NCBI GenBank assembly: GCA_017410065.1
Contig: JAFQRL010000032.1
Coordinates: 1,027-65,026, forward strand
Source: Clostridia bacterium
GTDB taxonomy: Bacteria > Bacillota > Clostridia > Oscillospirales > CAG-272
DNA: 64,000 nt
Direction of reading: 5' to 3'
In this document: piece by piece, positions 40,703-58,366 of the stretch
How the letters are laid out: every line of letters begins with the position of its first letter
How positions within the stretch are numbered: position 1 is the stretch's first letter
Program-made: the position numbers and the translations under genes
Notes under the pieces: generated by a model
Told to the model about the DNA's origin: nothing
What the model saw: the letters and a program-made list of their open reading frames with translations, nothing else
Databases searched by the model: none

Positions 40703-40834
40703 CAGCCGCAGGCTGCATGTAATCCGCGAAGCGGTATATCATCACGGCACAGCCGTGTATATCATCAGCCCTTCGGGCTGTATATCATCAACACGCAAGT
40801 GTTGCATATCATCCGCCATCGGCGGTATATCATC
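40703..40834 (-). repeat. Array of 6 GC mini-hairpins separated by (G)TATATCATC
   Basis: Hairpins CAGCCgcaGGCTG, CCGCgaaGCGG, ACGGCacaGCCGT, AGCCCttcGGGCT, AACACgcaaGTGTT and CGCCatcGGCG. Five spacers match gtatatcatc, with a 21-24 bp period. Confidence 0.9.
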
Positions 40835-56084: not shown

Positions 56085-57884
56085 TCAGTCCTCCTCACTG
56101 ACCCTGCGGAACTCCGAGATAGCGGCGCGGAAGTCCTCCACCGCCGCAGAAACGACCCTCGGATCGGTCATATCTATCTCGCAGACCTTAAGGCTGTCAA
56201 GGGGCGACATACTGCCGCCGCACTTAAGAAAGTCAATATATTTTTTCACGTACTCCTCGCCCTCCGACTCAATTCGCTTAACGATAGCCGAAGCGGCTGA
56301 AATACAGGTCGCGTACTTATAAACGTAAAAGTTCATATAAAAGTGAGGGATCCTCGCCCACTCGTATTGGATCTCGCCGTCGCACACGACGCGGGGCCCG
56401 AAATACTTTTTCACAAGCCCATAGTAGACCTCGGAGAGAGTGTCCGCCGTCAGGGGCGTGCCGCCCTCGACGAGAGAATAGACCTCCTTTTCAAATTCGG
56501 CAAACATCGTCTGCCGATAAAGGGTCGCCCGATAGGTGTCCATAATTCTGTCAAGAATGTATAATTTTTCGTTTTTCGACCCACACTCCGAGAGCATCTT
56601 ATGGGCTAAAAGAAGCTCGTTTACCGTGGATGCCACCTCCGCAACGAAGATGGTGTAGGAGGAGTTGTGAGGCTCGTTATACCTTCTTGAAAAATAGGAG
56701 TGCATAGAATGGCCGCCCTCGTGAGCGAGAGTGGAGACCTCGTTATAGCTATCCGTATAGTTCATCAGGATATAAGGCTTCGTGTAGGCACTGCCCGCGC
56801 TGAACGCGCCGCCCCGCTTCGCCCTTGTGGGATAAACGTCCACCCACCTCTCACAAAGAAGCCCCCTCTCCATCACCGAGCGGTACTCCTCGCCGAAGAC
56901 GCGGACCGTGTCAAGCACAAGCTCCACCGCACGGTCATAGGTATATTTCGTTTGCGAGTCGGGTGCCATAGATGCGTAAACGTCGTAAAGATGCATCTTT
57001 GAAAGCCCGAGCCTCTCTCTTTTCAGCTCGTAATATTCATAGAGCGCATCAAGGCTTTCGTTCACCGAGGTGATAAGATTTTCGTAGATGGTGGGCGTTA
57101 CCTCGTCTCTTGCGGTGGAGGCGGTTATTGCGTTCTCATAATTTCTCACCGCCGCGAGAGTGCACTTTTCCTTTATATATGCGTTGAAGGTGGTGGCAAA
57201 GGTGTTTTTGAAATCGGCGTAAACCTTATACAGCCGCTTGAATGCCGCTCTGCGCACCCGACGCTCTCCGCTCATAAGCATATCGATATAGTTTGCCTCG
57301 GAAAGCTCAACGCGCTCGCCGCCCTCCCCCGATATTTTGCCGAAATGAAGCTCGGAATTTGAAAAGATACTGCGGATATCGCTATGAGTGCCAAGGCAGT
57401 CTCCAAGCCTTGCGAGGAGCCTTTCGCCCTCGCCGTCAAGTGTGTGAGGCTTTCGCGCCTCTGCAAGCTCGATAATTCTTTTAAAGCTTGAAAGACCCTC
57501 GCACTCCGAGAAAAGCTCCTTTATGCGCCCCTCATCAAGCTCTATAAGCTTCGGACGCACGAACCAGGATGCGCTGTCCGCCTCCGAGGAAAGCGAGCGG
57601 ACCCTCGCCATCTTTGCCTGGGATGGGTTATCCGCCGTATTCACCGAATAGGAAAGAAAGGCAAAATCCCAAAGCTTTTCGATGACCCCCTCAAGGGTCA
57701 CAAGCTCTGTGAGCGCGCGGCAGAGCGACTCGCCGCTCTCGCACATTTTCCCCTCCCACTCGGGATATTTTCCGATCATTTCGCGCGCCTTGGCGAAATC
57801 CGCCTCAAACGCCTCGTCACTTTCATATATCTCGGATAAATTCCATTTATATTTTTCGTCTATCTTGCTTCTTTCCTCTGCCAT
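56085..57884 (-). CDS. pepF: Oligoendopeptidase F (M3B)
   Basis: HEGGHSMHSY zinc motif and a PepF-like length of 599 aa. ggag RBS. Confidence 0.9.
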   Translation of the reverse strand: MAEERSKIDEKYKWNLSEIYESDEAFEADFAKAREMIGKYPEWEGKMCESGESLCRALTELVTLEGVIEKLWDFAFLSYSVNTADNPSQAKMARVRSLSSEADSASWFVRPKLIELDEGRIKELFSECEGLSSFKRIIELAEARKPHTLDGEGERLLARLGDCLGTHSDIRSIFSNSELHFGKISGEGGERVELSEANYIDMLMSGERRVRRAAFKRLYKVYADFKNTFATTFNAYIKEKCTLAAVRNYENAITASTARDEVTPTIYENLITSVNESLDALYEYYELKRERLGLSKMHLYDVYASMAPDSQTKYTYDRAVELVLDTVRVFGEEYRSVMERGLLCERWVDVYPTRAKRGGAFSAGSAYTKPYILMNYTDSYNEVSTLAHEGGHSMHSYFSRRYNEPHNSSYTIFVAEVASTVNELLLAHKMLSECGSKNEKLYILDRIMDTYRATLYRQTMFAEFEKEVYSLVEGGTPLTADTLSEVYYGLVKKYFGPRVVCDGEIQYEWARIPHFYMNFYVYKYATCISAASAIVKRIESEGEEYVKKYIDFLKCGGSMSPLDSLKVCEIDMTDPRVVSAAVEDFRAAISEFRRVSEED

Positions 57885-58093
57885 ATTCCGTCTCCGTAAG
57901 ACTGCCCGCGGTGCGGCAAAGCCACCGCCCGAGAGCTGTTTTTATATGTATTATCTTACCATATTAATGCTTTTAATTCAAGTAAATATCGCATAAAATA
58001 TATTAATTTTTTGATAATAACCAATAAATGGGGCGACCTCCGCGCAAGGCAAAGGTCGCCATCTCTTATAAACGGGAAAGGGCAGAGGCAAAA

Positions 58094-58310
58094 GTGATGT
58101 TACTCGCTTCGCTCATAATGATGCTTTTGCTTACGCAAAAATGATGTTATTCGCTTCGCTCATAATGATGTTGCTCCCTACGGTCGCGGGTGATATGATG
58201 CTTGCCCACTGTGCCGCAGGCACAACATCATTGCCGTAGGCTACATCATTGCCGCAGGCTACATCATTAGGCGAAGCCGACATCACTTGCCCATAAGGGC
58301 AAACATCGTT
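58094..58310. repeat. Inverted array: five (A)ATGATGTT motifs then five AACATCATT motifs, interleaved with mini-hairpins
   Basis: Forward motifs at 58094, 58117, 58140, 58164 and 58194. Reverse motifs at 58224, 58243, 58261, 58280 and 58302. Hairpins GCCgtaGGC, GCCgcaGGC, GGCgaaGCC, TGCCCataaGGGCA and TTTTGCttacGCAAAA. Confidence 0.85.
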
Positions 58311-58366
58311 CGGCGCACATGCTTTATAGCAGGTCGCCGAGGTCGCCGAGTATTATAAAATTTGCT

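Follow-up and report, generated by a model that had tools for sequence, protein, structure and literature searches.

The window (the whole stretch of 64,000 nt that was analyzed) carries a gene for a ZIP-family metal transporter (zupT; PF02535; 58367–59110, minus strand) and a gene for oligoendopeptidase F (pepF; 56085–57884, minus strand), and the spacer between these two genes is 482 nt long (57885–58366). The genes in this neighborhood encode the ZIP transporter, PepF, and NUDIX and ABC proteins, and the contig is chromosomal. A likely pepF promoter, TTGAAT-17-TAAGAT, lies on the minus strand at 57981–57953. Between this promoter and zupT, starting ~18 nt past the zupT stop codon, the spacer holds a block of repeats and hairpins (58032–58348) that is the subject of this report. 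A coding role for the array region was considered and rejected, as the sole overlapping open reading frame is 51 aa long and the region aligns as hairpins.

The core of the block is a pair of convergent arms. In the left arm (58094–58208, plus strand), five RTGATGYT linker words start at 58094, 58118, 58141, 58165, and 58195 (spacings of 24, 23, 24, and 30 nt), with hairpins between them; read on the minus strand, this becomes the reverse-word arm. The right arm (58224–58310, minus strand) contains reverse words, ACATC(A/G)(T/C)T, starting at approximately 58225, 58243, 58261, 58280, and 58303 (spacings of ~18, 18, 19, and 23 nt), which alternate with the hairpins GCCgtaGGC, GCCgcaGGC, GGCgaaGCC, and TGCCCataaGGGCA in a manner resembling the Gut-1 motif discussed below. 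The arms meet at a central hairpin, GTGCC-gca-GGCAC (GTGCCgcaGGCAC; 58211–58223), which sits at the dyad and is 97% paired across copies of the same class. The five forward words, the five inverted copies around this hairpin, and the mini-hairpins between them, including those of the right half, had all been described in the original prediction and are all present in the sequence. It had also reported a 29-bp direct repeat in the left half; the repeat is real, but its extent is that of a 47-nt tandem duplication (58088–58134 and 58135–58181, 85% identical). On the right arm, an 18-nt tandem duplication (58225–58242 and 58243–58260) amounts to one extra unit. Finally, an apex box (GATGCTTGCCC; 58197–58207) is complementary to 58297–58307 (GGGCAAACATC), the two forming the strands of a helix, P0, that competes with the outer hairpin; its 3′ strand overlaps both that hairpin (58289–58302) and the degenerate outermost word. 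There are 338 strict words in 2.37 Mb on both strands, which gives 0.03 expected per 217 nt, and the six strict matches alone have a Poisson P of ~1e-12; chance is thus no explanation of the array.

The arms are bounded by further palindromic modules. On the zupT side lies hairpin module A (CGGCGCACATGC-tttata-GCAGGTCGCCG; 58311–58339), the junction past which strains differ, and at its edge is a 9-nt tandem duplication (AGGTCGCCG twice; 58331–58348) that is polymorphic between strains. On the pepF side the block begins with hairpin A′ (GGCGACCT-13 nt-AGGTCGCC; 58032–58060), which is also predicted, weakly, to be a minus-strand terminator. A 13-nt inverted pair, 58032–58044 with 58335–58347, is part of the palindromic module A. 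The intervening stretch at 58061–58093 is a putative degenerate copy of a "TTATAC..CGGGCGGTAA" module found ahead of the array in paralogues, an identity proposed from comparison by eye with C7:5045, C1, C42, L045, and others. Beyond hairpin A′, toward pepF, lies native pepF upstream DNA that is shared with locus L253, where PepF is 81% identical and the upstream region has neither zupT nor an array. The pepF promoter, which lies outside the element, is kept almost letter for letter in L253. Since this promoter is conserved in an array-less locus, the pepF-side boundary can be placed at hairpin A′.

We then compared the spacer with those of relatives. Several species of the genus retain the zupT–pepF arrangement. 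Conservation of the array in close relatives, which the original prediction had expected, was not found: the orthologous zupT–pepF spacers of seven related species contain no such array, with lengths of ~80–170 nt (L136, L137, L142, and L146), ~600 nt (L133), 182 nt (L250), and 508 nt (L251). One of these species has a tandem repeat of another kind, three copies of gcacgcacggataaaaacgaggttt just upstream of pepF (L251:3640–3740), which is unrelated to the Gut-1 arrays. Within the species of the window, three contigs of other samples, with a 99% identical ZupT (L246–L248), agree with the window as far as hairpin module A and then run into a different array, which consists of "aaggtatagtgtgttacac...cgggcggtaa" followed by a GTGAAAT-class array like those at C24:41 and C47:51401. 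Different strains therefore carry different arrays past the same junction hairpin. Since the contigs L246–L248 end inside the array, replacement and a tandem extra insertion both fit. The 9-nt duplication of AGGTCGCCG is present in L246–L248 and absent in L249, which belongs to the same species; with the 47-nt and 18-nt duplications and the strain differences, it provides the variation in unit number that had been predicted. In a search for an alignable empty site, none turned up: the contig with an identical ZupT proved to be the same strain, the strains with 99% identity ended inside the array, and a contig with a 96% identical PepF had an unrelated upstream region. No target-site duplication was recognizable at the element, and no transposase, recombinase, or insertion sequence with matching ends was identified. 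From its absence at the orthologous sites and the strain difference at hairpin A, the zupT–pepF array is quite likely a mobile or exchangeable insertion.

The element is far from unique in its genome. BLAST with 58119–58339 found paralogues at C1:36556–36756 (85% identity), C42:23329–23529 (82%), and C22:16500–16644 (75%), as well as matches in 19 of the 40 relatives searched. The original prediction had proposed enrichment of the 8-mer, or of periodic clusters of it, elsewhere in the genome. The exact 8-mer is not enriched (37 + 32 found genome-wide vs. ~42 expected per strand), and outside this locus it gave no strict periodic cluster, but the degenerate word [AG]TGA[AT][AG]T forms ~49 clusters in the 2.37-Mb genome; a search with the exact 8-mer is misleading because only the degenerate word reveals the family. 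These clusters fall into five linker classes, GTGAAGT, GTGAAAT, ATGAAAT, ATGATAT, and GTGATGT, the last of which is that of the zupT–pepF copy, and nearly all two-armed clusters consist of forward words followed by the reverse complements of their own class. By crude ORF calling, the clusters are essentially all intergenic and occupy convergent, tandem, and divergent spacers, and a tally on the same crude ORFs found 19 of 39 arms co-oriented with the upstream gene, i.e., no orientation bias. Module A (GGCGACCTGC..GCAGGTCGCC) recurs ~16 times in the genome; most of these copies adjoin arrays, and some arrays have one on each side. A pattern scan of genome contigs gave many spurious hits across unrelated phyla, and true copies were confined to ~29 Clostridia loci. 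The zupT–pepF array is almost certainly a member of a hairpin-and-linker repeat family of gut Clostridia.

Several other arrays of the genome illustrate the variety within this family. The rha array in the same window (~40736–40833; C30:41762–41859) comprises five hairpins joined by ATATCAT; it is one-directional, of the ATGATAT class, and belongs to the same superfamily, as had been surmised from a shared word. A conserved box, GATGCATACCGTTTTTAACGGTATC, with 14 copies in the genome, lies beside some other ATGATAT-class copies. Elements of two classes also occur head to tail, with GTGATGT followed by GTGAAGT at C22:16500–16860 and ATGAAAT followed by GTGAAGT at C19:55343–55775, so arrays can stack in tandem. 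GTGAAGT-class arrays start with a homologous long hairpin, cAGAAAGAGAGAAC...GTTCTCTCTTTCTG, found genome-wide (e.g., C22:81303, C23:35089, C26:8930, C42:21793, and L013), and end with a second module, AGCGTGTT(C/A)TCCGTTAAGGATAACACGCT, of which there are 12–14 copies. Because the long hairpin is homologous between copies and its stem covaries, this "terminator" belongs to the repeat. The zupT–pepF copy is likewise a repeated head-to-head element and not an ordinary terminator, in line with the original prediction, which had likened it to an iteron, centromere-like, or BIME-type organization. The BIME-like part of that comparison stands, in that array and module A form a mosaic of palindromic units. 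A plasmid or phage iteron or a parC-type centromere was rejected, since the locus is chromosomal and has no adjacent rep or par gene, and copies of the element are scattered across many contigs.

We next turned to known RNA families. The Rfam model of Gut-1 (RF01706) matches 58238–58311 on the minus strand with 32.5 bits (E 1e-4), short of the gathering score of 50, and the right arm covers model positions 1–77 on that strand, i.e., the model from end to end. Gut-1 is marked by at least three short hairpins with a constant GUGAAAU-type linker of 7 nt, and the same plan is found here, with the linker UGAUGU in place of UGAAAU. Genome-wide, RF01706 has 49 matches at E ≤ 0.01, of which 13 are above threshold, often one per strand of the same element, and the above-threshold copies share their hairpins position by position with the zupT–pepF copy. 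Across the order, 65 of 151 genomes have RF01706 matches, at least 28 of them in the richest genome, and many of these matches lie at contig ends, as would be expected of a repeat that breaks assemblies. Other Rfam families (SNORD83, mir-598, and rli62) gave chance-level matches only and were set aside. Gut-1 was described as a motif of human-gut metagenomes to which no function was assigned (Weinberg et al. 2010, Genome Biol 11:R31, PMC2864571). An inverse array (AUAUCAC plus hairpins) is visible in the unmodelled flank of that published alignment (PMC2864571), which indicates that Gut-1 as modelled in Rfam represents a single arm of a unit with dyad symmetry. The zupT–pepF element represents a new linker variant, related to Gut-1 at a sub-threshold score. 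Our literature search found no publication linking Gut-1 or PF05635, the protein family considered below, to such repeats.

To assess which parts of the element are constrained, we aligned 24 copies of the GTGATGT class (class D) from MAGs of Clostridia, Eubacteriales, Oscillospiraceae, and Acutalibacteraceae. Under a model of nested word–word helices plus local hairpins, 97.2% of cells are paired in these 24 copies, compared with 28–50% when the partners are slid. Helix P0, in which the outermost degenerate word and the 5′ half of the outer hairpin pair with the apex box, is 97.3% paired across the same copies; the sequence of the box varies among cassettes, and the apex copy tracks it in 13 of ~22 complete cassettes. 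P0 competes with the nested ladder as well as with the outer hairpin, and either fold may form. Compensatory changes were seen in four local hairpins (hpL2, hpL3, hpR1, and hpR2) of the 24 copies, and one local-hairpin position is occupied by GCC/GGC, TAC/GTA, or CAC/GTG in different copies. We infer that selection has maintained the pairing of the hairpins and not their sequence. The linker helices are near-invariant within a class, and what looks like covariation of the linkers is variation between classes. Each element carries one linker class throughout, and the hairpins in between stay position-homologous across classes; the linkers must therefore have changed in concert, which points to a sequence-specific reader.

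The strand on which the element might act was harder to read. Local stems genome-wide contain 736 Watson–Crick, 5 G·U, and 5 A·C pairs, and loops that are TNC or TNNC on the word-forward strand are GNA or GNNA on the opposite strand. Since the element is dyad symmetric, the same design is present on either strand, and the two strands fold better than shuffled sequences by z scores of −4.6 and −5.5, as any inverted repeat would. G·U pairs are concentrated on one strand in H1 (39 vs. 2) and H4 (17 vs. 3). Choosing the strand by wobble pairs was nevertheless abandoned, as the indications conflict: H1 and H4 favor the plus strand, a mismatch in P0 favors the minus strand, and the local stems favor none.

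A small protein gene accompanies some of the arrays. Complete copies of the unit, such as those at C15:6865, C28:5984, and L117, are cassettes in which a tRNA gene is followed by a terminator, a two-armed array, a sigma-70 promoter, and a gene of the PF05635 family. Of the seven PF05635 genes in the genome, four lie immediately downstream of an array, and two of the genome's array–PF05635 cassettes sit behind tRNA-Leu and tRNA-Ser. In the GTGATGT cassette of L117, the order is tRNA-Met, terminator, array, a TTTACA-17-TATAAT promoter, a ribosome-binding site, and a 119-aa gene. In relatives, the GTGATGT arrays of L006, L008, and L117 immediately follow a tRNA-Met or tRNA-Gln gene and its terminator. 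Since a terminator precedes the array and the next promoter comes after it, a role at the DNA level is favored in the complete cassettes. We scored 87 PF05635 loci (80 from the metagenome and the seven of the studied genome): an RTGAWRT array lies upstream in 29, usually abutting a good sigma-70 promoter, and 58 are without one. At C33:931–1239 and C37:5559–5846, PF05635 genes lacking an RTGAWRT array are accompanied by other short repeats (gaaagttgaaaatggaaaattgaaaatg; cactcttcacttttcac) and by duplicated boxes on both sides.

The cassette proteins match TIGR02436, "four helix bundle protein," with E values of ~1e-27 to 1e-31, and their profile matches PDB 2RLD, an entry with five chains, at E 2e-46; PF05635 is considered Avd-like (PMC10053308). 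In a tree built from 28 cassette proteins, the linker class of the accompanying array requires four changes (the minimum being three), whereas shuffles required 12.2 on average and none of 200 was as low; the four proteins of the TG class form one group. Array and PF05635 gene thus diverge as a unit. Such clustering is also predicted by co-inheritance of a linked cassette and is no proof of binding. No PF05635 gene lies beside the zupT–pepF copy, where only the array and its flanking hairpins are present, and the occurrence of complete cassettes elsewhere identifies this copy as a gene-less derivative. No PF05635 gene of the GTGATGT clade was found in the assembly, in which the best match to the L117 protein is ~51% identical.

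Taking these lines of evidence together, we consider that 58032–58348 is probably an inserted, gene-less modular repeat that works as a folded nucleic acid and whose linkers are read by a class-specific factor, for which PF05635 is the best candidate. The folded form would be the dyad-symmetric, two-armed array of mini-hairpins with constant 7–8-nt linkers and palindromic bounding modules, within which the linkers would be the sequence-specific part recognized by the class-specific factor. That reader would best be sought in the small, pentameric PF05635/TIGR02436 four-helix-bundle (Avd-like) protein encoded downstream of complete copies. Gene-less copies would be derivatives that spread, or were exchanged, at the flanking hairpin modules, and the zupT–pepF copy would have settled in a harmless position between the zupT stop codon and the pepF promoter. 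Taken by itself, the proposal that the PF05635 protein binds the linkers, as DNA or as RNA, is a tentative one, suggested by the linkage of gene and array. More doubtful still is its extension to a recognition code, in which each PF05635 clade would read its own linker class, cassettes would dock behind tRNA genes, and gene-less arrays would be satellites, served in trans or orphaned and exchanged at junction hairpins.

Any role for the element as a local cis-acting sequence, whether as a zupT terminator, a stabilizer of its 3′ untranslated region, or a pepF operator, is very improbable. Its start ~18 nt past the zupT stop codon, where no other intrinsic terminator was seen, would suit such a role, and by analogy with REP sequences stable hairpins would be expected to block 3′ exonucleases. 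However, the element is absent from the same spacer in seven related species, and other strains have a different array past that same hairpin A; its paralogues lie in unrelated contexts that include divergent promoter regions, and the pepF promoter lies outside it and is conserved without it in L253. A somewhat better case, although still an unlikely one, can be made for a bona fide sRNA of the Gut-1 family with its own transcription, folding as a ladder or as a multiloop closed by P0 and acting in trans, for example as a protein sponge. Gut-1 is classed as a certain RNA by Rfam and by Weinberg et al. (PMC2864571), both strands fold far above shuffles, the hairpins covary, the G·U pairs of H1 and H4 are biased to one strand, and a promoter-like box, TTGCTA-17-TGtTATACT, lies upstream of some paralogues. 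Against this, ~40 or more copies per genome, at which assemblies break, is the behavior of a repeat; no orientation bias relative to neighboring genes was seen in the crude ORF tally, the array of complete cassettes lies where transcription is not expected, and the local stems are almost without wobble pairs. The promoter-like box is itself a palindrome (GGTATA..TATACC) and poorly kept in the zupT–pepF copy, and a sigma-70 promoter driving the array in paralogues is accordingly doubtful.

A purely selfish repeat of the REP/BIME, BOX, or MITE kind, spread by host recombination, by slippage, or by a transposase acting on single-stranded hairpins, with no reader and with PF05635 as a passenger, has in our view a minor but real chance. 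The family is high copy, intergenic, and found in either orientation; it forms mosaics with other palindromic modules, changes its unit number by tandem duplication, and is polymorphic in presence and absence and between strains. Its stems are almost wobble-free, and on one strand its loops are of the C-GNA-G or GNRA type, which are very stable in DNA mini-hairpins. What tells against a repeat with no reader is that the ~8 linkers of an element are of the same class while the hairpins are position-homologous, a concerted change that is hard to obtain without a sequence-specific reader, and that arrays are linked to PF05635 genes, with their class clustered by protein clade. Nor is there a Y1 or RAYT gene, a target-site duplication, or an insertion sequence with matching ends. 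The cognate Y1 (RAYT-like) gene that the original prediction had suggested elsewhere in the genome did not materialize, as PF01797 has no match in this 96%-complete genome under a search that did return matches in control genomes.

At the zupT–pepF locus itself, the element is probably neutral. Since 2010, Rfam has listed Gut-1 as an orphan, "human-gut-only" sRNA. That picture is altered here: the model captures just half of a unit with dyad symmetry, and this unit is a repeat that occurs in multiple copies, varies between strains, falls into several linker classes, and is found in ~40% of the genomes sampled from the order. The Avd-like gene that lies behind tRNA genes in complete copies offers a concrete, testable partner for both orphans, Gut-1 and PF05635. 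If the reading of the linkers as a code were true, gut Clostridia would harbor a mobile or regulatory element of a new kind, and both Gut-1 and the 23S-IVS protein family, long-standing orphans, would gain a function. On a practical level, the arrays break metagenome assemblies at the sites where they lie and can pass for regulators of neighboring genes.

Among known systems, the REP/BIME sequences of Proteobacteria with their RAYT (TnpA-REP) transposases resemble the present family in their abundance of intergenic palindromic units, which form mosaics and often face each other head to head, as well as in a variable unit number and positions in 3′ regions. High-copy, intergenic, imperfect palindromes in mosaics are likewise what is found here (~49 clusters and ~16 copies of module A). 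Unlike REP/BIME, the family has no RAYT/Y1 gene and belongs to a different host phylum, and it is built from mini-hairpins of 9–16 nt and a constant linker, in contrast to REPs of ~35 bp with a 5′ GTAG. BOX elements of Streptococcus pneumoniae have the structure boxA-boxB(n)-boxC, and Correia elements are repeats of the MITE type. With these BOX, Correia, and MITE elements the present family shares a modular build, a variable number of internal units, complementary ends that fold the whole element, and an intergenic, non-coding nature; the sequences are not similar, no terminal inverted repeat accompanied by a target duplication was recognized here, linker classes have no counterpart there, and a protein gene accompanies complete copies here. 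The Avd/PF05635 proteins of diversity-generating retroelements and of 23S rRNA intervening sequences (PDB 2RLD, 2GSC, and 4DWL) represent the same gene family as that of the cassettes; the cassettes examined differ from those systems in having no reverse transcriptase, template repeat, or rRNA context beside them, and the zupT–pepF copy differs further in having no gene at all. The closest likeness is to Gut-1 (RF01706), which likewise consists of short hairpins split by a constant (R)UGAWRU linker and likewise comes from gut Clostridia. Whereas the Rfam model covers three hairpins from a single arm, the actual unit has two convergent arms and an apex box flanked by hairpin modules, and whereas the motif has been described as an orphan sRNA of the "human gut only," the unit is multi-copy and often lies next to a PF05635 gene.
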